DNA of 64,000 nucleotides from Minisyncoccota bacterium (lineage in GTDB: Bacteria; Patescibacteriota; Minisyncoccia; Phycocordibacterales; DATDWN01): contig JBAZZC010000001.1 of the NCBI GenBank assembly GCA_041658985.1, positions 65,813 to 129,812 of the forward strand. Reading direction: 5' to 3'. Positions 733 to 46,683 of this stretch are shown here, piece by piece. A program made the position numbers and the translations under genes. Position 1 is the first letter of the stretch. Each line of letters opens with the position of its first letter. The notes under the pieces were generated by a model. That model was not told the origin of the DNA. It searched no databases and saw nothing but the letters and a program-made list of their open reading frames with translations.

Positions 733-760
733 ACCGCCCCGTCTCGACGAGGCGGTTTTC
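733..760 (+). terminator. rho-independent terminator-like GC hairpin (accgcc-N12-ggcggt) followed by TTTTCC
   Basis: stem ccgcc/ggcgg with gacga loop core, T-run; same motif family as the intragenic CCGCC-GAnGA-GGCGG elements. Confidence 0.5.
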
Positions 761-4535: not shown

Positions 4536-5639
4536 ATGTTACAAAAAATTTTATCAATGTTAGTCTTGGTAACTATTTTAGTTTTTGGCTTTTGGTCAGT
4601 ACAAACTTCGGTCGCCCCAATTCAAAATGAATACAAAGAAGCGGTGGCAACTACAACCCCGACGCTCCGACCTAATACATCGGAGGTCGGGGCTCCGACC
4701 ACAAGCGTCGGAGCAACCAAATCAAAACCCGTTGTAATAACAAAACAGATTGAGATACCTGAAATAATTACGATTCCGACAATAGAACCAGCACCAGATT
4801 TTGAAAAAATTAATGCATACACTCGTCTGGCCACAGTGAACATTCTCTGTCAGACAAAAGCCAGTGACTTCTCCCCTATTTCTGGTACGGGTATGATAAT
4901 AAGCCAGGATGGTTTGATTTTAACCAATGCCCATGTGGCCCAATATTTTTTGTTGCGTGATTTGTATGTGAAAAATTTTATTGAATGTGTTATTCGAACC
5001 GGCAGTCCTGCCTATCCAAAATATCATGCTGAATTAGTTTATATTTCTCCAGCTTGGGTAGAAGACAATAAAGCCGAGATAAAATTACAAAACCCATTAG
5101 GGACCGGTGAAAAAGACTTTGCCTTTTTACGAATTACTGATGCCATTGATGGCTCTAGATTACCTGCTTTTTCTTTTGTCTCAACCGATGTACGAGAAAA
5201 AATAAATGTAAACGAACCAGTTGTTCTTGTTTCCTATCCTGCTGGATTTCTTGGTGGGCTATCAATCATTCAAAACTTAAACATCACAAGTGCTGTTACA
5301 ACGATTCAAGATGTTTTCACTTTCAAAGAAAACACCATTGATGTAATCGCTGTTGGTGGGACGGTTGTATCACAAAAGGGTGCTTCCGGCGGTGCAGTAA
5401 TAGATAAAAACTCGAAACTCTTGGGAATAATCGCCACAAGTTCAGATGGTGCTGTGACAAGTAGTCGTGGACTAAACGCTATCACACTGGCCTATATAAA
5501 CAGAACACTACAAAGTGAGACTGGGTTTACACTCTCTGAATTCTTATCAAAAGATTTGGCTGGTTATGCAAAAACTTTTCAAGAAAACATTGCTCCGGGA
5601 CTTACAAAAATACTTACCGACGAGATAATAAAACAATAA
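4536..5639 (+). CDS. trypsin-like serine protease (S1C/HtrA-like catalytic domain) with N-terminal TM anchor
   Basis: GTGMIISQDGLILTNAHV (His motif), GASGGAV (GxSGG Ser motif), N-terminal hydrophobic helix. Confidence 0.8.
   Translation: MLQKILSMLVLVTILVFGFWSVQTSVAPIQNEYKEAVATTTPTLRPNTSEVGAPTTSVGATKSKPVVITKQIEIPEIITIPTIEPAPDFEKINAYTRLATVNILCQTKASDFSPISGTGMIISQDGLILTNAHVAQYFLLRDLYVKNFIECVIRTGSPAYPKYHAELVYISPAWVEDNKAEIKLQNPLGTGEKDFAFLRITDAIDGSRLPAFSFVSTDVREKINVNEPVVLVSYPAGFLGGLSIIQNLNITSAVTTIQDVFTFKENTIDVIAVGGTVVSQKGASGGAVIDKNSKLLGIIATSSDGAVTSSRGLNAITLAYINRTLQSETGFTLSEFLSKDLAGYAKTFQENIAPGLTKILTDEIIKQ
4665..4713. repeat. in-frame intragenic GC-rich palindromic element (family 2), copy in protease gene
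   Basis: ccccgacgctccgacct...ggaggtcggggctccgacc...gcgtcgg; second copy 46029-46083 ~85% identical; both translate to TPTLRP.T.EVG.PT..VG in host proteins. Confidence 0.75.
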
Positions 5640-5729: not shown

Positions 5730-6035
5730 TTAAATTAAAAATTTACTTTCAGACGATATCTGAACAATCATTTGAAAGTTATCCTCTTTTACAGTTTTGT
5801 TTGGTTTTTTTAAGCCACATTTTACACATTTGTGAATAATAATATATTCCTTTCCTTTTTTTTCTACCATAATTGGCTCCATCATTCCCCCACAGTTCTC
5901 TGTCCTATCCCCTGGAAAAACATCAACATGTTTTGACCATAAACATTGTGGGCAGTGGTTTGTGTAACCGTTACCTTCTACAGAAAAACCACACTTCTCG
6001 CAAGTAAAGTTCTCGATTTTGCGTATAAAAATCAT
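5730..6035 (-). CDS. zinc-ribbon protein, RNHCP-domain-like
   Basis: CEKCG...YTNHCPQCLWSKHVD...CVKCG: two CxxC pairs and NHCP motif. Confidence 0.5.
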   Translation of the reverse strand: MIFIRKIENFTCEKCGFSVEGNGYTNHCPQCLWSKHVDVFPGDRTENCGGMMEPIMVEKKGKEYIIIHKCVKCGLKKPNKTVKEDNFQMIVQISSESKFLI

Positions 6036-6202
6036 TATGTAAATATATCATGGTATTATGTAATTTCGGAAAAAGGCAAGAACTTGGGCGGGCCGTATAA
6101 GACCCTCTTTTTTTCTTTCCATCTCATCTAACATTTCAACATTCTCAAGAATGTGAGAATGTCATTTTAGCAACTTTTTTAGGTAAGTGGTATAATTATA
6201 GG

Positions 6203-6880
6203 ATGAAAAAAGTATACATTGTTTTAATATTAATAATCGTGGGGCTGGGAATATCGTTTGCATTTAATGGCCAACCAAAGAAAGATGATGTTGGGATTGC
6301 AAATCCTGCATCGGTATTTTGTGTGGAGCAGGGTGGGCGGTTGGATATTAGGACTGATACGAATGGTGGGCAAACAGGATTTTGTGTTTTTGAAGGTGGT
6401 CCTGAATGTGAAGAGTGGGCTTTTTTCCGAGGTGAGTGTAGAATAGATGAGCCAACAAATACTGGAATTGCTTGCACGGAAGAAGCGAAGATTTGTCCGG
6501 ATGGCTCTGCGGTCGGGCGTATCGGACGAAATTGCGAATTTGCTCCGTGCCCCAATACACCAATATCTGGACAAGGAACTGTTTCAGGTAAGGTGACTCT
6601 TAGCCCGACTTGTCCGGTAGAACGCATACCTCCTGACCCTAATTGCGCTCCAAAACCATATGCCATTTCTATAAATATTTTGAAAGCTGGCGGTATTGGA
6701 ATAATTAAAACAATTAAAAGTGACGTAAATGGGGCGTTTAGTATAAATCTTGATTCTGGAACATTTATTCTACGGGCAAGTGGTGGCGCGGTACTGCCGA
6801 GATGCGCTGATGTATCGGTGAAAGTAGTAAATGGACAAACGACCACGGCCAATATTTCTTGTGATACGGGGATACGATAA
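6203..6880 (+). CDS. secreted DUF333 (putative hemolysin-like) domain protein
   Basis: signal peptide/TM MKKVYIVLILIIVGLGISFAF; NPASVFCVEQGGRL...GFCVFEGG...C pattern typical of DUF333; region moderately GC-enriched. Confidence 0.55.
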   Translation: MKKVYIVLILIIVGLGISFAFNGQPKKDDVGIANPASVFCVEQGGRLDIRTDTNGGQTGFCVFEGGPECEEWAFFRGECRIDEPTNTGIACTEEAKICPDGSAVGRIGRNCEFAPCPNTPISGQGTVSGKVTLSPTCPVERIPPDPNCAPKPYAISINILKAGGIGIIKTIKSDVNGAFSINLDSGTFILRASGGAVLPRCADVSVKVVNGQTTTANISCDTGIR

Positions 6881-7897: not shown

Positions 7898-8338
7898 TTA
7901 TAAGACAACATCATCTAGGATAGAAACTCGCCATGGTTTTTTGTTTTCATCCATGTAAACGATGGCAACATCAAACTGCCAATCAATATCATCCGAAACA
8001 TTTTTGTCTAAAAGATAAGATTGAATTGCCCTACCAAGTCTTTTTAACTTCCACGGATGCATATTATCCTCTGGCCGATAATCATCTGTTACACGTGTAA
8101 CATTCTGGTCCGCCTCATCGGCGGACCCGCCGAGGAGGCGGGAAACACTTTTCACCTCCACAAAATGTATCTTATTCCCCTTTTTAGCCACAATATCAAG
8201 TTCTCCCCACTTTCTTAAGTAATTTCTGTCAATAATTGAGTAACCATTTTCCTTCAGGTATGTACTTACTGCATCCTCTCCAATTTTTCCAATTATCTGT
8301 TTTTCAGTTGGTGGTTTCTGTTCTTTTTTACCAAACAT
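7898..8338 (-). CDS. yraN: YraN/UPF0102 family endonuclease-like protein carrying an in-frame palindromic insertion
   Basis: GEDAVSTYLKENGYSIIDRNYLRKWGELDIVAKKGNKIHFVEVKS matches YraN family; segment RLLGGSADEADQ is encoded by two GC hairpins. Confidence 0.7.
   Translation of the reverse strand: MFGKKEQKPPTEKQIIGKIGEDAVSTYLKENGYSIIDRNYLRKWGELDIVAKKGNKIHFVEVKSVSRLLGGSADEADQNVTRVTDDYRPEDNMHPWKLKRLGRAIQSYLLDKNVSDDIDWQFDVAIVYMDENKKPWRVSILDDVVL
8108..8142. repeat. two adjacent short GC palindromes (family 1: CCGCC-GAnGA-GGCGG) inserted in-frame in yraN
   Basis: gtccgcc-tcatc-ggcggac then cccgcc-gagga-ggcggg; related copies at 28425-28444, 46534-46550, 1748-1764, 733-756. Confidence 0.75.
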
Positions 8339-9442: not shown

Positions 9443-11048
9443 TTTCTCAATCCCAAAAGAAGTTACACATGTAACACAAACGCTAGAAAAAGCTGGTTTT
9501 GAGGCTTTTCTTGTGGGTGGGTGTGTTAGAGATTTAATAAGACAGCAATTGGAAATTGGTCAGATGGATGCAATTCAAGGCGGAAATAGAAATAGACGAG
9601 GAGGCGTACATGGGTACGGTGACGAGAATATTTCTATTTCCAACGCAGAAGTGCGCCATATGCCCAATTTTCAACCAAAAGATTGGGATGTAGCGACTAA
9701 TGCCAAGCCAGATGAAATTATAGCCTTATTTAGCAAGACTTTTTATGAAAACGAATTTGGTACAGTTGGGGTTGTAAACGAGCAAACAGACAATGAGACA
9801 CTAAAAGTGATTGAGGTAACTCCATATCGCATAGAATCAAAATATTCTGACGGAAGACACCCGGATAGTGTTGTTTTTAGCCAAAAAATTGATGACGACC
9901 TAAAAAGACGTGACTTTACAATCAATTCTCTGGCCTATTCTGTTTCTGCCTCATCAGCAGACGGGTCACAGGGAACAATTGTTGATTTATACGATGGCCA
10001 GAAAGATATACAAAACAAGGTCTTACGCACAGTGGGTGAGCCAGTAGACCGTTTCACAGAGGATGGTCTACGTATTTTGAGAGCAATAAGACTAAGTACA
10101 GAACTTGGATTTGAAATAGACCCAGATACGGAAAAGGCTATATTTGAGAATTCAAACCTCTTGGAAAACATATCCATGGAACGCATTAGGGATGAATTTA
10201 CAAGGATAATTATGTCAGAGAAACCAATGGACGGCCTACTTGCTATGAAAAAGTTGGGAATTATGAAGTATGTAGTTCCAGAACTTGAAGAAACCTATGG
10301 GGTTGAACAAAACCAAGCCCACGCCTACGACGTCTGGGAACATCTACTTCGTTCTGTACAACATTCAGCCGATAAAAATTTTCCTCTGGAAATTCGTTTG
10401 GCGGCTCTATTACACGATATTTCTAAGCCAGAGAATCGTCGTAGAAGCAAGGACAAAGACAAGTGGACTTTCTATGGCCACGAAGTTGTCGGGGCAAAAA
10501 CAGCAAAAAAAATCCTAACAAATCTAAAATATTCAACAAAAATAATTGAAAAAACTGTAATTCTCGTCAGGTGGCACATGTTCTTCTCCGACACAGAGCA
10601 AATTTCGCTCTCTGCGGTCCGTAGAATGATTGTAAATGTTGGAAGCTCTTCCATATGGGATTTGATGAATGTGCGCATCTGCGACCGTATAGGCACTGGT
10701 AGGCCTAAGGAAGACCCATATCGTCTGCGTAAATACCACGCAATGATAGAAGAAGCCCTTCGAGACCCAATTTCTGTTGGAATGTTAAAAATTGATGGTA
10801 AAGGATTAATGGATGTTACACATGTAACACCAGGGCCAAAGATTGGTTTTACTTTACATGCACTTCTTGAAGAGGTTTTAGAAGACCCAAAGAAAAATAC
10901 AGCTGAATATCTAGAAAAAAGGGCCAGTGAGCTTATTTTACTTCCTGAAAATGAATTAAGGGCACTCGGAGAACAAGGAAAGATGTCAAAGGAAGAAGCA
11001 GATGAGGAGGAAATCAAAAAGATAAGAGGAAAACACTACGTAAAATAG
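9435..11048 (+). CDS. cca: CCA-adding tRNA nucleotidyltransferase with HD domain; contains ~40-aa in-frame insertion
   Basis: GFEAFLVGGCVRDL...DWDVATNAKPDEI (pol-beta NTase head), HD motif HLLRSVQH...LLHDISKP; insertion between VRDLIR and PKDWD. Confidence 0.88.
   Translation: MNNFSIPKEVTHVTQTLEKAGFEAFLVGGCVRDLIRQQLEIGQMDAIQGGNRNRRGGVHGYGDENISISNAEVRHMPNFQPKDWDVATNAKPDEIIALFSKTFYENEFGTVGVVNEQTDNETLKVIEVTPYRIESKYSDGRHPDSVVFSQKIDDDLKRRDFTINSLAYSVSASSADGSQGTIVDLYDGQKDIQNKVLRTVGEPVDRFTEDGLRILRAIRLSTELGFEIDPDTEKAIFENSNLLENISMERIRDEFTRIIMSEKPMDGLLAMKKLGIMKYVVPELEETYGVEQNQAHAYDVWEHLLRSVQHSADKNFPLEIRLAALLHDISKPENRRRSKDKDKWTFYGHEVVGAKTAKKILTNLKYSTKIIEKTVILVRWHMFFSDTEQISLSAVRRMIVNVGSSSIWDLMNVRICDRIGTGRPKEDPYRLRKYHAMIEEALRDPISVGMLKIDGKGLMDVTHVTPGPKIGFTLHALLEEVLEDPKKNTAEYLEKRASELILLPENELRALGEQGKMSKEEADEEEIKKIRGKHYVK
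9545..9676. repeat. ~130-bp palindromic element inserted in-frame in cca
   Basis: terminal inverted repeats gcaattggaaattgg / cccaattttcaacc and inner 13-14 bp inverted repeat ggaaatagaaatag / tatttctatttcc; encodes QQLEIGQMDAIQGGNRNRRGGVHGYGDENISISNAEVRHMPNFQ absent from canonical CCA enzymes. Confidence 0.65.
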
Positions 11049-27905: not shown

Positions 27906-29489
27906 ATGGCTGTTTCAAAAATCTACAGCGCACAGACAACGCATCTTACTGCACAAATTATTGATATTGAGGTTGATTTGTCCAAGGGACTTCACTCGTT
28001 TTCTATCGTTGGTCTAGGAGACAAGTCAATTGAGGAATCAAAAGACAGGGTTGGGGCAGCGATAAAAAATTCTGGTTTCAAATCACCAAAAAATAAAAAT
28101 CAAAAAATTGTAGTATCACTCGCTCCGGCGGACATAAAGAAAGAGGGTCCGCTTTTTGATTTACCGATTGCTATTGCATATCTTCTGGCCTCGGAAGACA
28201 TAAAAGCAGATACAAAAAATAGAATCTTTGTTGGAGAGCTGTCTTTAGATGGCGAACTTAGGCCAATAAAAGGCGCTCTACCTATTACCCAAAAAGCCAA
28301 GAAAGAAGGCTTCAAAGAGATATTTTTGCCAAAAGAGAACGCCGAGGAAGCTGTAAATATAGAAGGTATTACTGTTTATGGCGCAGGGAGTTTGTTAGAG
28401 GTTTTGCAACACATAAATACAAAACGGTCCGCCTCATCGGCGGATGAACTTGGGGATACTGGAATAATTCACAAAGAGATCCCCAAGTTCAAAAAAATAA
28501 AGAAAAAGAAAATCGCACGAGAAATTGATATTGATTTTGCTGATATAAAAGGTCAAGAGTCGGCAAAAAGGGGATTAGAAATCGCTGCGGCCGGTGGACA
28601 TAATATAATAATGTATGGACCTCCGGGGACAGGCAAAACAATGCTCGCAAAAGCATTTACACATTTACTTCCACAACTTTCGTTTGATGACATGTTAGAA
28701 GTTACTTCTATTTATTCTATTGGTGGAATGTTGTCAGAGGGTTTGATAGAACATCCACCTTTTCGCTCACCACACCACACCGCCTCTTATGTCTCTCTCG
28801 TCGGTGGTGGAAGTAATTTAAAACCCGGAGAAGTCACGCTCGCACATAAGGGAGTGTTATTCATGGATGAGTTTCCTGAGTTTGATAAAAAGGTTTTGGA
28901 AAGTTTACGTCAACCTTTGGAAGATAGGGTGGTAACTATTTCTCGTGCAAAGGGAAGCGCAAGATACCCAGCACATTTTATTTTAATTGCCACAATGAAC
29001 CCGTGTCCATGTGGAAATTATGGAGTGAAAGGTAAGGAGTGTATTTGTTCTGCACAGAATATAGAAAAATATAAAAGAAAAATGTCTGGACCGATTGTAG
29101 ACAGAATAGATATGTGGGTAGAAGTTTCAAAAGTTGAACACGAAAAATTAACTGATAGCAGGGAAATGCACGAGGGAACAAATGTTATGAAGCCTCGTGT
29201 AGAAAGGGCCAGAAAAATAGCGGAGCAAAGATATAAAAAGCTAGGACTCAAAACAAAAACAAATGCCGAGCTCTCTCCAAAAGATTTAGTCAAACACATT
29301 GTCTTGTCGGATAAAGTGAAAGAAGTTTTGAATAAATCAGCAAAACAATTAGACCTCTCCGCCCGTTCATATCACAGAATAATAAAACTAGCCCGCACAA
29401 TTGCGGACTTGGGTGGTTCAGAGAATATTTCCGAAAATCATATTATGGAAGCGATTAACTACCGTCCCAAAAAATATCAAAATATATAA
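27906..29489 (+). CDS. comM: YifB/ComM-family Mg-chelatase-like AAA+ ATPase
   Basis: Lon-like N-domain, Walker A GPPGTGKT, Walker B LFMDEF, C-terminal Mg-chelatase domain; contains in-frame palindrome at 28425-28444. Confidence 0.9.
   Translation: MAVSKIYSAQTTHLTAQIIDIEVDLSKGLHSFSIVGLGDKSIEESKDRVGAAIKNSGFKSPKNKNQKIVVSLAPADIKKEGPLFDLPIAIAYLLASEDIKADTKNRIFVGELSLDGELRPIKGALPITQKAKKEGFKEIFLPKENAEEAVNIEGITVYGAGSLLEVLQHINTKRSASSADELGDTGIIHKEIPKFKKIKKKKIAREIDIDFADIKGQESAKRGLEIAAAGGHNIIMYGPPGTGKTMLAKAFTHLLPQLSFDDMLEVTSIYSIGGMLSEGLIEHPPFRSPHHTASYVSLVGGGSNLKPGEVTLAHKGVLFMDEFPEFDKKVLESLRQPLEDRVVTISRAKGSARYPAHFILIATMNPCPCGNYGVKGKECICSAQNIEKYKRKMSGPIVDRIDMWVEVSKVEHEKLTDSREMHEGTNVMKPRVERARKIAEQRYKKLGLKTKTNAELSPKDLVKHIVLSDKVKEVLNKSAKQLDLSARSYHRIIKLARTIADLGGSENISENHIMEAINYRPKKYQNI
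28425..28444. repeat. in-frame short GC palindrome (family 1) within comM
   Basis: ggtccgcc-tcatc-ggcggat encoding RSASSADE. Confidence 0.7.
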
Positions 29490-29993: not shown

Positions 29994-30749
29994 ATGATAG
30001 AAAAATATCTTGAAGATGCCGGGTTGAGTGACAAAGAGGTGAAGATTTATCTTCAATTAATCCAGATGGAGAACGCTTCTGTTGTTGATTTGGCAAATAA
30101 AACAAAAATCAAAAGACCGACTGTCTACACCATTCTAGATTCGTTAGCTAAAAAAGGTCTAGTGAGTGAAATAGATGAAAATAAAAAAGCCAAGTATGTG
30201 GCCGAACCACCAGAGAGACTAAAATTATTTATAGAAAGAAAAGAAACTTTCTTGGGTGAATTAAAAAATCGTTTTGTAAATGATATTATTCCTCAAATAA
30301 AAAGTTTTCAAAAGGAAACGGGAGAGAAACCAACGGTAAAATTCTTTTCTGGTAAAGAAGGAATCCTTAGTACCAATGAAGATGTTTACGACGGAAACCC
30401 TGATGGTTCTCCAATTTATATAATATATTCCAAAGACCTTCTTGATGAGGTTTTTAAATCTACAGAAACAGACAAATACAAAAATACAAGAACCAGTGCG
30501 GGAATTAAAGCAAAAACCCTCTATAATTGGTCAAAAGGTGAAAAAAAATCGGATGAATTAGCAGAAAGAATACGGGTTGATGAAAAAAAATATCCTTTCT
30601 TTGCTGATATAAGTATATATAAAGATAAGGTCAGAATTAGCGTATTAGGTAAAGAGCTATCAGGAATATATATAAAGAGTAAAGACTTTGCCGAAACATT
30701 TAAAAGCTTATTCAATCTAGCTTTTGATAATCTGAAAAACAAACAATAA
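29994..30749 (+). CDS. TrmB-family transcriptional regulator (paralogue 3)
   Basis: AGLSDKEVKIYLQLIQMENASVVDLANKTKIKRPTVYTILDSLAKKGLVSE wHTH. Confidence 0.6.
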   Translation: MIEKYLEDAGLSDKEVKIYLQLIQMENASVVDLANKTKIKRPTVYTILDSLAKKGLVSEIDENKKAKYVAEPPERLKLFIERKETFLGELKNRFVNDIIPQIKSFQKETGEKPTVKFFSGKEGILSTNEDVYDGNPDGSPIYIIYSKDLLDEVFKSTETDKYKNTRTSAGIKAKTLYNWSKGEKKSDELAERIRVDEKKYPFFADISIYKDKVRISVLGKELSGIYIKSKDFAETFKSLFNLAFDNLKNKQ

Positions 30750-30758
30750 ACACAAATG

Positions 30759-30797
30759 ATGAAGGCCCGGCCGGATGTTACTCCGGCCAGGCCCTGT
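30759..30797 (+). terminator. rho-independent terminator (ggcccggccgga-tgttac-tccggccaggcc + TGTTTGT)
   Basis: 12-bp GC stem after TrmB-like gene stop. Confidence 0.6.
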
Positions 30798-31383
30798 TTG
30801 TCGGGTCTCCCACAAAGGATGACCCTCGCTGCGTGCCCAACAACCCAGTGGGTTGTGGGGCACCTTGTAGCTAGTCGCCCATTTTCCTAAAACTCCTTCC
30901 AAAAACAGTGCCGAACGACTGACTGACCAATTAACTACGCTGGACTAAAACCCACTGGCCCTACTTGGGATGCCCTATTGCACCCCAAGTTCGCCCGCCC
31001 GGCTCTAGTCCCACATATCGCCTCCCTTATTAGTTGAGGTTGACGTCTCTAGGGGTAGTATACACCCTACAATTTTTTTGTCAAATATTGATTTCAAAAC
31101 AGATAAACTCCATGTCAATTTATTTTTAATCTAGTCAGTCTCAATTATAAAGCAAAGAGTGATAAATGGCCTTATTTAAGACTATATTCGTTGTTAGTAA
31201 AAATGACTTGTCAGTTTAGCTTGACAAAAAAAGGGTATTGGTATATACTATCTCTAGAATCAAGTTAACAATAAGTCAGACTGCTTTGACAATAAATAGT
31301 TTTCACTTCCACTTTGGCTGGCCCGGATCGCACACATTACTTGCGAGGGGCCCCAAAGTGGGAGTGAAAACTCAACAAATGGG

Positions 31384-31704
31384 GTGGATATGAACAAGGT
31401 CATCGTCGGCGTCGTGCTGGTGCTGGTTCTGACGGTGTTCGTTGGTGGGTGTGAGCTCAACTCAGTGGTGGTTCGTCACTACTGCGATAAAGAGGTTTCG
31501 TACAACCTCTGGAAGAAAGATTCGCAGTACTGGCTGAACCTCCACGTCGGCTCGGTTGGCGAAAGGGCTTGTGCCGTAAATCCAGACATGCCTCGAGCCA
31601 TCAACTTGCGACAGTACGTTTCCTCGGGCGAGGAAGCGGACAAGTTGATTGAGAGGCACCGGCGTGCCTACGCCGAGAGACTTACCAGACCGAAAGTGAA
31701 CTGA
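31384..31704 (+). CDS. putative lipoprotein (106 aa) in GC-rich island G
   Basis: signal peptide with lipobox VFVGGC; G+C-rich. Confidence 0.45.
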   Translation: MDMNKVIVGVVLVLVLTVFVGGCELNSVVVRHYCDKEVSYNLWKKDSQYWLNLHVGSVGERACAVNPDMPRAINLRQYVSSGEEADKLIERHRRAYAERLTRPKVN

Positions 31705-31838
31705 CCTCCCCGGTCGTCGTCGCCCCGTGTAGACCAATCCCAAGTCTACCGAGTTAGAAACTGGGACAATAATACTTCGGGGAAGTACCGAAGCGCCTAA
31801 CAAGCGGTCACTGTTCGTCTTCTGGAGCGTCATCCCAG

Positions 31839-31900
31839 AACTGTATCGAGATGTGTATCTCGACTGATGAGTCCTTCAATAAGTTCAGGACGAAACAGTT
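31839..31900 (+). ncRNA. type III hammerhead self-cleaving ribozyme
   Basis: AACUGUA^UCGAGAU-gugu-AUCUCGA-CUGAUGA-GUCC-uucaauaaguuca-GGAC-GAAA-CAGUU: helix III 6 bp (31839-44/31895-900), helix I 7 bp hairpin, helix II 4 bp, full catalytic core, GUA cleavage triplet. Confidence 0.8.
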
Positions 31901-32630
31901 GGTTCCTTAAAAACAATTTTCCGAAACACCTGCCTCCTTCTTGGTTCACTAATATTAAGTGATTCAAGAAGGGGGTAGGTATGCTACGGGCAGATACCAG
32001 AACCTCCATAATGGTGTGATTTGATAGGTACACCTGTAAGAGGTGTAAGTAACAGATGATCCACATGGCATAGTGGGTAACGGGGTAAGGCTCTCCGTGT
32101 CATCGTGTTACCACATCAAATGGGTATAGTGCCACGCCAAAACTGGCGGGGGACACTATATCAACTGGAGTACTCCAGACTGCCCAATTAGAGCTTCGGA
32201 AGGTTGTAGCTACCAAACCTTGCCCTGAGGAACCAATGTTCCTCGGGGTTCCTTAAAAGCAAATCACGTTGTGGTTTCCTTTTAAGGGAAGAGAGGAACA
32301 CGAGGATAAACAAACACCTAAGTTGACCTCCTCTTGTATGTGAATCTCTTCCCGTCATGCCGTTGTCTAGGTCAGTGCAGAGACCAGAGGACAAGAAGGG
32401 TGAAATACTCCGCCTTTAAGTGATAAACCCTCCACTGGCCCAAAAGGTCAGAAGGCGGATGGTGAGTTAAGTGACTCATCATTGGGGATTAAAATACGGG
32501 TGGCCACCATGTTCTACAAAACAAGGAGGTCGGCCAAGCCCGCAAAAAACACCCCGAACTGCACACGTTCTTTGGAGCACAGGCTCCACGATTAAGGCTT
32601 CCAAGCTACCATCGTGGAGCCTTTTTCGTA
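31846..32630 (+). ncRNA. candidate ~785-nt structured non-coding RNA with hammerhead-processed 5' end and hairpin terminator
   Basis: no convincing ORF on either strand; G+C-rich with many local hairpins (e.g. gaggaacc-aatg-ttcctc); bounded by ribozyme cleavage site and terminator 32578-32630. Confidence 0.3.
32578..32630 (+). terminator. rho-independent terminator, copy 1 of an identical 52-bp repeat
   Basis: ggctccacgat-N18-atcgtggagcc + TTTTTCGTA; identical copy 32951-33003. Confidence 0.75.
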
Positions 32631-32736
32631 TCTAAAATGTGTCCCCAGGAGAACTTGACTTTTACCACCTGTCTGTGTTATAATACAAGTAGGAGGTGGG
32701 GCACTACTAACAAAACCCACCGAAGGGAGTTAACAA

Positions 32737-32937
32737 ATGGCAAAGAAGAAGTACCGAAAGCCCCCGAAGGGCTCGGGGGCGGAGTTCCTCGCAAGACTCG
32801 ACTGCCATGCGTCGACGAGGCGGGTGGCAGACGTCGGTCTCGGCCGGGGAGTGACCAGGCGGATTCCTCGTCGTGAAAATCTCGACGAACGAGCGGGTGA
32901 TTTCGGGGATGATGAGAAGAAAGAGAGGTACAATTGA
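32737..32937 (+). CDS. small basic protein (66 aa), hypothetical; bracketed by identical terminators
   Basis: MAKKKYRKPPKGSG...; SD gaagggag; G+C-rich. Confidence 0.4.
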   Translation: MAKKKYRKPPKGSGAEFLARLDCHASTRRVADVGLGRGVTRRIPRRENLDERAGDFGDDEKKERYN

Positions 32938-32950
32938 TGTTCCTTGGGGC

Positions 32951-33003
32951 AACAGGCTCCACGATTAAGGCTTCCAAGCTACCATCGTGGAGCCTTTTTC
33001 GTA
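32951..33003 (+). terminator. rho-independent terminator, copy 2 of 52-bp repeat
   Basis: identical to 32579-32630. Confidence 0.75.
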
Positions 33004-45355: not shown

Positions 45356-46159
45356 ATGAATGACCAGGAAATAGACAATTTTATAAATACTTTATCCAAA
45401 CCCGTGAAAGAGTTTATCTTTGCTGGTGTCTGGGAAGAAAGAACAGCAGAGATTGCAAAAAAATATTCACTAAATGATACACAGGTAAATGATTTAGTAG
45501 ATACTGTGCTTTTTGTCCTTACTGGCCTGGAAAGTCCCGAAGCCCTTTTAGAAACAATTATTGCAGAGCTGGGTATCTCGAGACTCCTAGCTGAACAAAT
45601 AATGGATGACCTGGAAATAAGAGTTTTTGAATACGCCGTCAAAAGCATAGAGAAGAAAACGGACAGTAGCCAGCAGTTAGCATCTAGTAGCCAGGAAGAA
45701 ATTCAAAGTCAAAACAACCAAAACAAAACACCAGAAAAAGATATTCCAGAAATACGACCGAAAAATTTACCAGAAATAGAAGCAAACATTTTACCAATGA
45801 CTGAGCCCGGAGAAAAGGTGCGTATCGTGGAACAACCAATTAACACTGTCAAACCAGAAACAAAACCCCAGGAAACCCCAGGGGAAGCCCCTGGGCAAAC
45901 TTCGCGACCTTCTGAAATTATTTACAAAGCTGTGCCTGAACCCATTCCTGTACCACAATACACAGAAGCACCGGTTGAAAATAAAGTAATGCCTGCCCTA
46001 GAGACTGAAGCTAAACCATCTGAGCCAACCCCGACGCTCCGACCTAGTACGTTGGAGGTCGGGGAGCCGACTGAAAACGTCGGCTCAAAACCACCAGAAC
46101 CAGTACCACCTCCTGTAAAAAAATATGCTGTAGACCCATACCGAGAACCACTGGAATAA
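45356..46159 (+). CDS. hypothetical acidic/Pro-rich protein, carries family-2 palindromic insert
   Basis: ORF; PTPTLRPSTLEVGEPTENVGS segment encoded by palindromic element. Confidence 0.5.
   Translation: MNDQEIDNFINTLSKPVKEFIFAGVWEERTAEIAKKYSLNDTQVNDLVDTVLFVLTGLESPEALLETIIAELGISRLLAEQIMDDLEIRVFEYAVKSIEKKTDSSQQLASSSQEEIQSQNNQNKTPEKDIPEIRPKNLPEIEANILPMTEPGEKVRIVEQPINTVKPETKPQETPGEAPGQTSRPSEIIYKAVPEPIPVPQYTEAPVENKVMPALETEAKPSEPTPTLRPSTLEVGEPTENVGSKPPEPVPPPVKKYAVDPYREPLE
46029..46083. repeat. in-frame intragenic palindromic element (family 2), copy 2
   Basis: ccccgacgctccgacctagtacgttggaggtcggggagccgactgaaaacgtcgg. Confidence 0.75.
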
Positions 46160-46236: not shown

Positions 46237-46683
46237 ATGCGTTATCAAGTACCACAATTTATTGAAATAGAAGACAAAATCATTGGCCCACTGACCATAA
46301 AACAATTCACATATATTGTTGGTGGTGCCGGAATGGTTTTTATTTTTTACACATTTTTACCTATATACATAGCCATATTACTCATAGCAGTTGTTGTTCC
46401 TCTTTCTTTGGCTTTGGCTTTTTATAAAATAAATAACAAACCATTTATTGATTTTCTAGAATCTGCTTTTATCTACTATACAAAACAAAATCTTTACATT
46501 TGGAAAAAAGAACCAAAATCGCCTCCACGGCGATCCGCCGACGAGGCGGAAAAATTATCCGAATTAAGTGAGATATATGTTCCTCGTTTGTCTGATAGTA
46601 AATTGAAAGAGTTGTCCTGGACACTCGATATAAACGAAAACTTAAATCCACTTACGGGAGAAGACGGAAAAACGACAAGGTAG
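46237..46683 (+). CDS. small two-TM protein, VirB3/PrgI-like by position and topology
   Basis: two adjacent hydrophobic helices (AGMVFIFYTFLPIYIAILLIAVVVPLSLALAF); precedes VirB4-like genes; contains family-1 palindrome 46534-46550. Confidence 0.4.
   Translation: MRYQVPQFIEIEDKIIGPLTIKQFTYIVGGAGMVFIFYTFLPIYIAILLIAVVVPLSLALAFYKINNKPFIDFLESAFIYYTKQNLYIWKKEPKSPPRRSADEAEKLSELSEIYVPRLSDSKLKELSWTLDINENLNPLTGEDGKTTR
46534..46550. repeat. in-frame short GC palindrome (family 1)
   Basis: tccgcc-gacga-ggcgga encoding RRSADEAE. Confidence 0.7.

Follow-up and report, generated by a model that had tools for sequence, protein, structure and literature searches.

Short GC-rich hairpin repeats read in frame within conserved genes of a Candidatus Paceibacterota genome: a candidate family of miniature palindromic elements

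How does the same short GC-rich hairpin come to lie, in frame, inside several unrelated conserved genes of one bacterial chromosome? The question is raised by a stretch of 64,000 nucleotides (contig JBAZZC010000001.1 of assembly GCA_041658985.1, positions 65,813 to 129,812), referred to here as the window, which belongs to a metagenome-assembled genome of the uncultured lineage Candidatus Paceibacterota (Parcubacteria, Candidate Phyla Radiation, CPR). The same DNA belongs to a 148.7-kb metagenome contig (ena:ERZ27249449:k141_1030899). The window has a GC content of 38%; besides housekeeping genes, it contains a type IV secretion-like cluster (40-53 kb) and the dnaA-dnaN origin region near 54.5 kb. 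Hairpin repeats of 17-21 nt were found in its yraN, comM and prgI genes and, in decayed form, in cca. These repeats are a real and statistically solid feature of the window, and the points considered below are how they are maintained, where they came from and which of the known classes of palindromic repeat they resemble.

The gene yraN (UPF0102 nuclease family, PF02021; 7898-8338, minus strand) contains two abutting hairpins on the minus strand, which together make up a 34-nt palindrome and encode the joint peptide SRLLGGSADEAD. Hairpin 2 (8107-8127) has an 8-bp stem, GGTCCGCC/GGCGGACC, and reads GGTCCGCC-TCATC-GGCGGACC on the top strand; its coding-strand loop is GATGA and its peptide S-A-D-E-A-D. 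Hairpin 1 (8126-8142) is CCCGCC-GAGGA-GGCGGG, with the coding-strand loop TCCTC and the peptide (S)R-L-L-G-G. The two correspond to residues ~66-77, in the loop that follows the E-V-K strand, and this loop is modelled with low confidence by AlphaFold (predicted local distance difference test score below 50 at residues 69-73 and 77-86). The gene comM/yifB (Mg-chelatase-like AAA+ ATPase; 27906-29489, plus strand) carries a single hairpin at 28426-28444 (plus strand), GGTCCGCC-TCATC-GGCGGA, in the variable linker that joins the N-terminal domain to the ATPase domain; its orientation is opposite to that in yraN, and the peptide is S-A-S-S-A-D, in the context RSASSADE. The third host gene, prgI (46237-46683, plus strand), encodes a small membrane protein of the PrgI family (VirB3-like, PF12666) within the type IV secretion-like cluster. 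It shares the doublet architecture of yraN: TCGCC-TCCAC-GGCGA (46519-46533, S-P-P-R-R) precedes TCCGCC-GACGA-GGCGGA (46534-46550, S-A-D-E-A-E, in the context RRSADEAE), both on the plus strand, and the doublet is translated as SPPRRSADEAE. Each doublet can also be folded as one long hairpin in RNA fold calculations (-27 kcal/mol for yraN, -19 kcal/mol for prgI; z about -3.8). The presence of one hairpin module in yraN as a doublet, in comM and in the VirB3-like gene had been proposed from the letters alone, and the sequence bears this out; the first hairpin of prgI and the decayed fifth copy in cca are additions. The cca copy (9945-9961, plus strand), TCTGCC-TCATC-AGCAGA, retains five of six stem pairs, is read in the same frame as S-A-S-S-A-D and scores 16.3 bits on a covariance model of the doublet.

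Based on these copies, the unit can be defined as a stem of 5-8 bp ending in GCC/GGC around a 5-nt loop, whose two strands read GA-N-GA and TC-N-TC. Single units measure 17-21 nt, units are often paired in head-to-head doublets of 32-36 nt, and the only part that is constant between copies is the 3 bp adjoining the loop. Within this 38% GC genome the yraN and comM copies share a 19-mer with full identity.

The frequency of the module lies far above what base composition predicts. The exact pattern CCGCC-N5-GGCGG occurs four times in the window, each time in coding sequence. With the loop relaxed to 3-9 nt, four occurrences were again observed against 0.07 expected, a number reached by none of 100 shuffled sequences, and seven matches to the consensus at up to three mismatches were observed against 0.11 expected. 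Perfect GC-rich hairpins with a stem of at least 6 bp numbered 13 within coding sequences, compared with 1.45 +/- 1.3 after synonymous codons were shuffled within each gene, a 9-fold excess; the hairpins thus cannot be put down to amino-acid sequence or codon usage.

All coding copies are read in a single frame. Among the matches listed, 13 of 13 independent coding copies (four genes of the window and nine genes from metagenome contigs) are in the phase TCC-GCC, and the chance of such an outcome at a one-in-three expectation is ~6e-7. In this frame the unit encodes Ser-Ala-Asp-Glu-Ala or, when reversed, Ser-Ala-Ser-Ser-Ala, that is, small or acidic residues; read in the alternative frames, it would yield Pro-Pro-Met/His-Arg-Arg, Arg-Leu-Ile-Gly-Gly or a TGA stop. 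The unit is found in mRNAs in both orientations, the UCAUC sense being the commoner (9 of 13). One apparent out-of-frame copy, in locus L111, proved to lie upstream of the prgI start codon and is hence non-coding.

To place the segments in an evolutionary context, 120 homologues each of YraN, ComM and PrgI were aligned. Most homologues of each protein lack the segment. The stretch of YraN that runs from the catalytic E-V-K strand to the conserved Y-R-P-E-D-N is variable in length; the eight extra residues are missing from most homologues, and GGSADEAD or decayed forms of it are confined to a small group at 65-74% identity. The closest ComM relative (92% identity) has KKMDPNDPD at the site and hairpin-free DNA. 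Of two relatives at 89%, one carries the hairpin with one mismatched position in its stem, and in the other (L206) the identical position is taken by a different palindrome, CCTGC...GCAGG. In PrgI, the doublet region SP(P/Q)RR... is present in three close relatives (82-90% identity), with the hairpins confirmed in the DNA of both relatives that were read (L211 and L209), and a few of the more distant homologues have related decayed forms; in an orthologue at 88% identity, and in most of the others, the hairpin is missing and the sequence reads K-K-I-E-V-K-K. Copies in visible decay were found in comM of L205, in yraN of L207 and in cca of the window. From these three alignments it follows that the segments are lineage-specific and occupy sites that tolerate changes in length. 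The net gain in length relative to hairpin-free orthologues is small (8 residues in yraN, about 2 in comM and 4 in prgI), so that part of each hairpin replaces older sequence. The original prediction that the palindromes keep the frame and add a few residues thus holds for the frame and not for pure addition.

The same YraN loop holds further inserts in other genomes. In many lineages, a site resembling the centromere parS is immediately followed by a second in-frame palindromic insert of ~35 nt (CCCCAGTAGCAGAGCAAAGCTCGCTACGGGG, translated as PVAEQSSLRGRQ); inserts of the PVAEQSSLRGRQ type were seen in L006, L008, L015 and L017 (P0009, P0013, P0014, P0039 and others), and they too show compensatory changes. 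An insert of ~40 residues (..LDAVRGG..NKRGGVQ.YGDENI..SNKEMRQ) occupies this loop in L007 (10175-10381) and L025 (10175-10375; P0002, P0032, P0057).

Comparison of the DNA of these orthologues indicates what is conserved in the module. The stem of yraN hairpin 2, TCCGCC/GGCGGA in the window, is TCCGCT/AGCGGA in L004 and TCAGCC/GGCTGA in L005; that of yraN hairpin 1, CCCGCC/GGCGGG, is CTCGCC/GGCGAG in L006; and that of prgI hairpin 2, TCCGCC/GGCGGA, is CCCGCC/GGCGGG in L209. All of these substitutions are two-sided and preserve pairing, and two of them are non-synonymous: the change in L006 replaces Gly by Glu, and that in L209 replaces Ser by Pro and Glu by Gly. In an alignment of 13 doublets, whose rows were hand-picked and in whose metagenome rows hairpin 2 was fixed by the search, pairing holds in 98% of the cells, and of the 12 pairs six show two-sided changes and not one a change limited to one side. 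Among four yraN orthologues, nucleotide identity is 86-94% in the 12 hairpin codons and 68-70% in the rest of the gene; for synonymous third positions, the figures are 64-91% within the hairpins and 50-58% elsewhere. Conservation is thus raised despite the position of the peptide in the most variable loop of the protein. At the level of sequence comparison, the paired substitutions and the raised conservation together show that the stems are maintained, and the yraN and prgI copies, which persist across orthologues at 65-88% identity, are not decaying junk. One DNA module gives SADEA(D/E) or SASSA(D/E) depending on its orientation. Because the two orientations yield different peptides and the compensatory changes can alter residues, the module behaves as a nucleic-acid unit rather than as a conserved peptide.

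Copies were also found beyond this genome. A scan of public metagenome contigs for the exact 17-mer TCCGCCGATGAGGCGGA gave at least 120 matches, from which 80 loci were fetched; among the matches listed, about 45 of the 80 are below 50% GC. The same scan of a viral collection gave eight matches, one in a low-GC and seven in high-GC contigs, and serves as a baseline only. Again among the matches listed, in-frame copies in low-GC contigs were identified by Pfam in genes for NusA, S16, ApbA, PCMT, S1, IF-2, DnaK, S9 and PBP1A, and these coding copies are located in tails, linkers or loops. In some low-GC contigs the 17-mer lies between an A-run and a T-run, as in a bidirectional terminator (L095, L099, L100, L122 and L127, for example). 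Doublets recur as well (L103, L111, L130, L133, L134, L137, L140, L141, L162 and others), and in them the stem of the upstream hairpin varies freely, is always self-complementary, and encloses the constant core GCC-TCNNC-GGC. Several of the low-GC contigs, which are short, carry further copies of the family within a few kb. Copies were also located in structural RNAs, namely RNase P RNA (L113, L155, L159), the 5' part of 23S rRNA (L149, L154) and a group I intron (L160).

In the RNase P RNAs (L113, 125-443; L155, 1037-1477; L159, 2974-3334) the copies cap helices: L113 has one, L155 has two and L159 three, of which two are exact and the third has the stem CCCGCC. For the intron copy in L160 the location is 6016-6247. 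A CRISPR-like array in L131 (Ga0209958_1002282, 68% GC), with 111 repeat copies at a 71-nt period, has a repeat, GTTCCCTCCGCCGATGAGGCGGAGGGTGGGTTGAAAC, that contains the 17-mer; a link between the family and CRISPR was rejected as a probable coincidence in an unrelated high-GC organism.

The explanation that we favour, at a probability of roughly 0.55, is that these hairpins form a dispersed family of miniature palindromic repeats, copied into tolerant sites and maintained there as hairpins. Copying is invoked because identical 17-19-mers in unrelated genes and genomes require it, and the presence and absence of the repeats among close orthologues are consistent with it. Units would spread into new sites; candidate mechanisms are a single-strand transposase specific for hairpins, whose gene would lie elsewhere in the genome, and template switching or short-patch conversion from one hairpin to another. 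Insertions would be eliminated by selection on the host protein unless they are in frame and in tolerant loops, and such selection would account for the single frame and for the positions in loops and linkers. The palindrome would then be kept perfect, either by selection on the DNA or RNA hairpin or by templated correction from one arm to the other, a process documented to yield compensatory changes in a single step (PMC8794818), and intergenic copies would double as transcription terminators or RNA-end hairpins. A more ambitious version, which we consider rather unlikely, would have Patescibacteria possess a so far undescribed class of ultra-small (~17 nt) hairpin modules together with a dedicated partner, a hairpin-specific mobilising enzyme or a binding protein, the modules being written into spacers, structural RNAs and one-frame protein loops and actively kept paired.

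Several observations weigh against a copied family. The density is modest, with five family copies in 64 kb, or about one per 13 kb. No HUH/RAYT or other small-repeat transposase was found in the Pfam gene tables, which cover ~59 of the 64 kb of the window. No target-site duplication or clean insertion border is readable, since filled and empty sites have diverged; the word inserted in the original prediction is accordingly borne out as to lineage-specific presence, and an act of insertion is what the distribution of the segments suggests, across sites too diverged for exact borders. The 3' arm in prgI aligns with a pre-existing GAGGTGAAAAAATTA in a hairpin-free orthologue and may have been derived from a pre-existing GAGGTGAA, which would fit local creation by template switching. 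The doublet model, run on 1.26 Mb (the window and 80 Paceibacteria yraN neighbourhoods), matched outside the window only the yraN genes of the three closest loci, and the family was not found in the 77 more distant neighbourhoods; it is therefore not a universal hairpin of Paceibacteria. The copy in helix P12 of RNase P RNA aligns to a helix whose consensus is CCGCC...GGCGG-like as well, so it is a native helix and cannot be counted as an insertion. To these points may be added the hand-picked rows of the doublet alignment, as well as the long persistence and raised conservation of the yraN and prgI copies, which suit a selfish element no better than a functional one.

This last point leads to the rival that survives best, which we nonetheless hold to be on the unlikely side: that the hairpins are functional nucleic-acid structures selected in place, for instance for ribosome pausing at domain borders, for blocking exonucleases or for binding a hairpin-specific protein, and that their likeness is due to selection and not to copying. 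Compensatory stem changes, some of them made at the cost of amino-acid changes, and hairpin DNA that is better conserved than the remainder of yraN are what such selection would leave. The loop would fit as well, for GA-N-GA with a free middle base would be compatible with a GNRA-like pentaloop, as in loops of the lambda boxB type. The helix caps in RNase P RNA, 23S rRNA and the group I intron, mostly in the GAUGA sense, and the terminator-like stems point the same way. In mRNAs, however, both orientations are used and the UCAUC sense prevails, so that the RNA loop motif is not the selected feature in the coding copies. Close orthologues do without the hairpin, copies decay in comM of L205, yraN of L207 and cca of the window, and convergence onto 19 identical bases is very unlikely.

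A process without any mobile element is also conceivable, in which template switching at quasi-palindromes builds inverted repeats locally, in tolerant AT-rich linkers, as mutational by-products. Hairpins, and 'compensatory' changes made in one step, are documented products of template switching (PMC8794818, PMC5453318), and this process would accommodate both the match of the prgI 3' arm to older sequence and the different palindromes that separate lineages carry at the same comM and yraN sites. It leaves unexplained the identical 17-19-mers in unrelated genes and genomes, the recurrent doublet with its conserved GCC-loop-GGC core and the GC-rich sequence in a 38% GC background, and for the repeats as a whole we judge it improbable.

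Still less credit can be given to the proposal that a dimeric DNA-binding protein recognises the repeats as double-stranded sites, which would lie within coding sequence in the manner of parS; we regard it as very improbable. Perfect inverted repeats with a fixed 5-bp spacer would suit such a protein, and a palindrome with the parS consensus lies in frame 6 nt from the yraN doublet and twice in cca, so such embedding happens in this lineage. Against this, the arm sequences of the hairpins differ widely between copies and are always self-complementary, whereas the half-sites of the parS-like palindromes vary semi-independently (92 symmetric versus 53 asymmetric), and the only part of the hairpin that stays constant is the 3 bp next to the loop. 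Finally, short GC stems do arise in GC-richer patches, but chance or composition was rejected by all shuffle controls and is a negligible candidate.

The parS-like sites are of interest in their own right. The 14-nt palindrome GTTWCAYRTGWAAC matches the ParB-binding centromere parS (TGTTTCACGTGAAACA) and occurs at 8088-8101 (yraN), 9462-9475 and 10815-10828 (cca), where it is translated as V-T-R/H-V-T, once in the YraN loop and twice in cca. These three copies lie within 3 kb of each other and ~46 kb from dnaA. In most relatives a parS-like site is found just upstream of yraN (L004-L083, at about position 9900-10250), and over the 1.26 Mb of the window and the yraN-centred loci the palindrome has 145 copies against 0.15 expected.

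Other hairpins of the window are related to the family loosely or uncertainly. Two intergenic hairpins had been listed as related copies, and this part of the original prediction does not stand as worded. Upstream of rny (1748-1764) lies CCTGCC-GGCGA-GGCAGG, a hairpin whose stem is not that of the present family but of a second one (CCTGCC...GGCAGG) and which reaches only 15.6 bits on the doublet model. The one at 733-760 (plus strand) is a longer, terminator-like composite hairpin followed by TTTT, whose link to the family is uncertain; a GC stem-loop with a T-run lies within it at 739-755. Members of the family CCTGCC-N4-5-GGCAGG, translated in frame as LPAG(Q/R)(A/Q)(G/E), recur in various genes of various Paceibacteria (L032 at 1055 and 2139, L067 at 9116, and the yraN loop of L060), the window copy at 1748-1764 being intergenic. 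Related GC palindromes (GGAGGTCGGGG..CCGAC-N7-GTCGG) at 4681-4714, in a trypsin-like protease gene, and at 46058-46086, in the open reading frame (ORF) 45356-46159, encode EVG.PT..VG in these two unrelated genes. The latter ORF also contains a GC hairpin, CCCAGGGG-AAG-CCCCTGGG, at 45877-45895, and the three may represent a further small family. The region 30700-33000 is GC-richer (42-45%) and has several GC hairpins; it received Pfam annotation for one short ORF only and no Rfam match.

The closest precedents for such repeats are the Rickettsia palindromic elements (RPEs). As far as they are summarised in PMC10969869 (after Ogata et al. 2000, 2002), RPEs are ~100-150 bp long, add 30-50 residues and are specific to Rickettsia. 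In common with the present units, they are described there as palindromic repeats in unrelated conserved protein-coding genes, read in frame, tolerated at the protein surface and decaying over time in the reduced AT-rich genome of a host-dependent bacterium (PMC10969869). The present units likewise lie in frame in unrelated genes, four in the window and nine elsewhere. By length, host and description they are set apart from the RPEs of that summary: they measure 17-36 nt (units of 17-21 nt and doublets of 32-36 nt), which is ~5-10 times shorter, add 2-8 residues, occur in another phylum, in a Paceibacterota host within Patescibacteria, and show active maintenance of the stem. The parallel with RPEs that had been drawn for them is therefore sound as an analogy and fails as a statement of membership.

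Similar behaviour was reported for GC hairpins in mitochondria, including the GC clusters of yeast, the double-hairpin elements of Allomyces, the repetitive hairpin-forming elements of sponges and the small inverted repeats of placozoans (PMC7813641). These elements are also short, GC-rich and often double; they reside in AT-rich genomes, in spacers, variable rRNA helices and protein-coding genes, they differ between close relatives, and they are taken to be mobile (PMC7813641). They are organellar and of high copy number, whereas the present units are chromosomal in a bacterium at the low density given above, and the resemblance, which extends to the features of this functional class, is one of behaviour. 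To our knowledge, no report describes the mitochondrial elements as strictly bound to a single reading frame.

Other classes fit less well. Repetitive extragenic palindromic (REP) sequences, with the bacterial interspersed mosaic elements (BIMEs) and REP doublets forming hairpins (REPINs) built from them, are imperfect palindromes of 20-40 nt, often paired in inverted orientation, that act as terminators or mRNA-end stabilisers; they are extragenic, have a GTAG or CGTC head and hundreds of copies, and are accompanied by a RAYT gene in the genome (PMC3733652). By contrast, all five window copies with a CCGCC-type stem are inside coding sequence. The GTAG/CGTC head is absent, the flanks being TTTC/CCAG in yraN, AACG/TGAA in comM and AAAA/AAAA in prgI, and no RAYT (Y1 HUH transposase) is among the Pfam-annotated genes over ~59 kb of the window. 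MITEs, or miniature inverted-repeat transposable elements, measure 50-500 bp, with terminal inverted repeats derived from insertion sequences and with target-site duplications; the present unit is one short hairpin, and no duplication of that type is visible in the alignments of filled with empty sites, which have diverged. With terminators and terminator-like mobile repeats, of which SPRITE is one named in PMC10969869, the family shares the identical 17-mer flanked by A- and T-runs in other low-GC contigs. Unlike intrinsic terminators, the coding copies of the window have no T-run on the sense strand (they are followed by CAGAAT, TGAACT and AAAAAT), are read through and were not listed by a terminator scan. 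A scan of the window with Rfam 15 returned four tRNAs alone above the gathering threshold, and the hairpins match no family in it. No description of intragenic palindromes of this kind in CPR or Patescibacteria was found in the searchable literature. By this comparison, the repeats appear to act like RPEs and mitochondrial GC hairpins and to belong to neither, nor to the REP or MITE classes. Among in-frame palindromic repeats they stand out for their very small unit and for a stem that is actively preserved within coding sequence.

The evolution of stem-preserving sequence within coding regions bears on the debate whether compensatory changes in hairpins arise by selection or by templated mutation. 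If confirmed genome-wide, the repeats would extend the concept of 'selfish DNA inside protein-coding genes' from Rickettsia and organelles to the Candidate Phyla Radiation, with a far smaller unit, and would explain in part the short lineage-specific insertions in CPR housekeeping proteins. They would also provide a natural test of which peptide insertions are tolerated, since one frame in two orientations survives, and strain-level markers for tracking uncultured Paceibacteria. Should the version with a dedicated partner be true, this would be the smallest known protein-coding repeat family and would repeatedly supply loop insertions to the proteins of Patescibacteria, which are otherwise streamlined.

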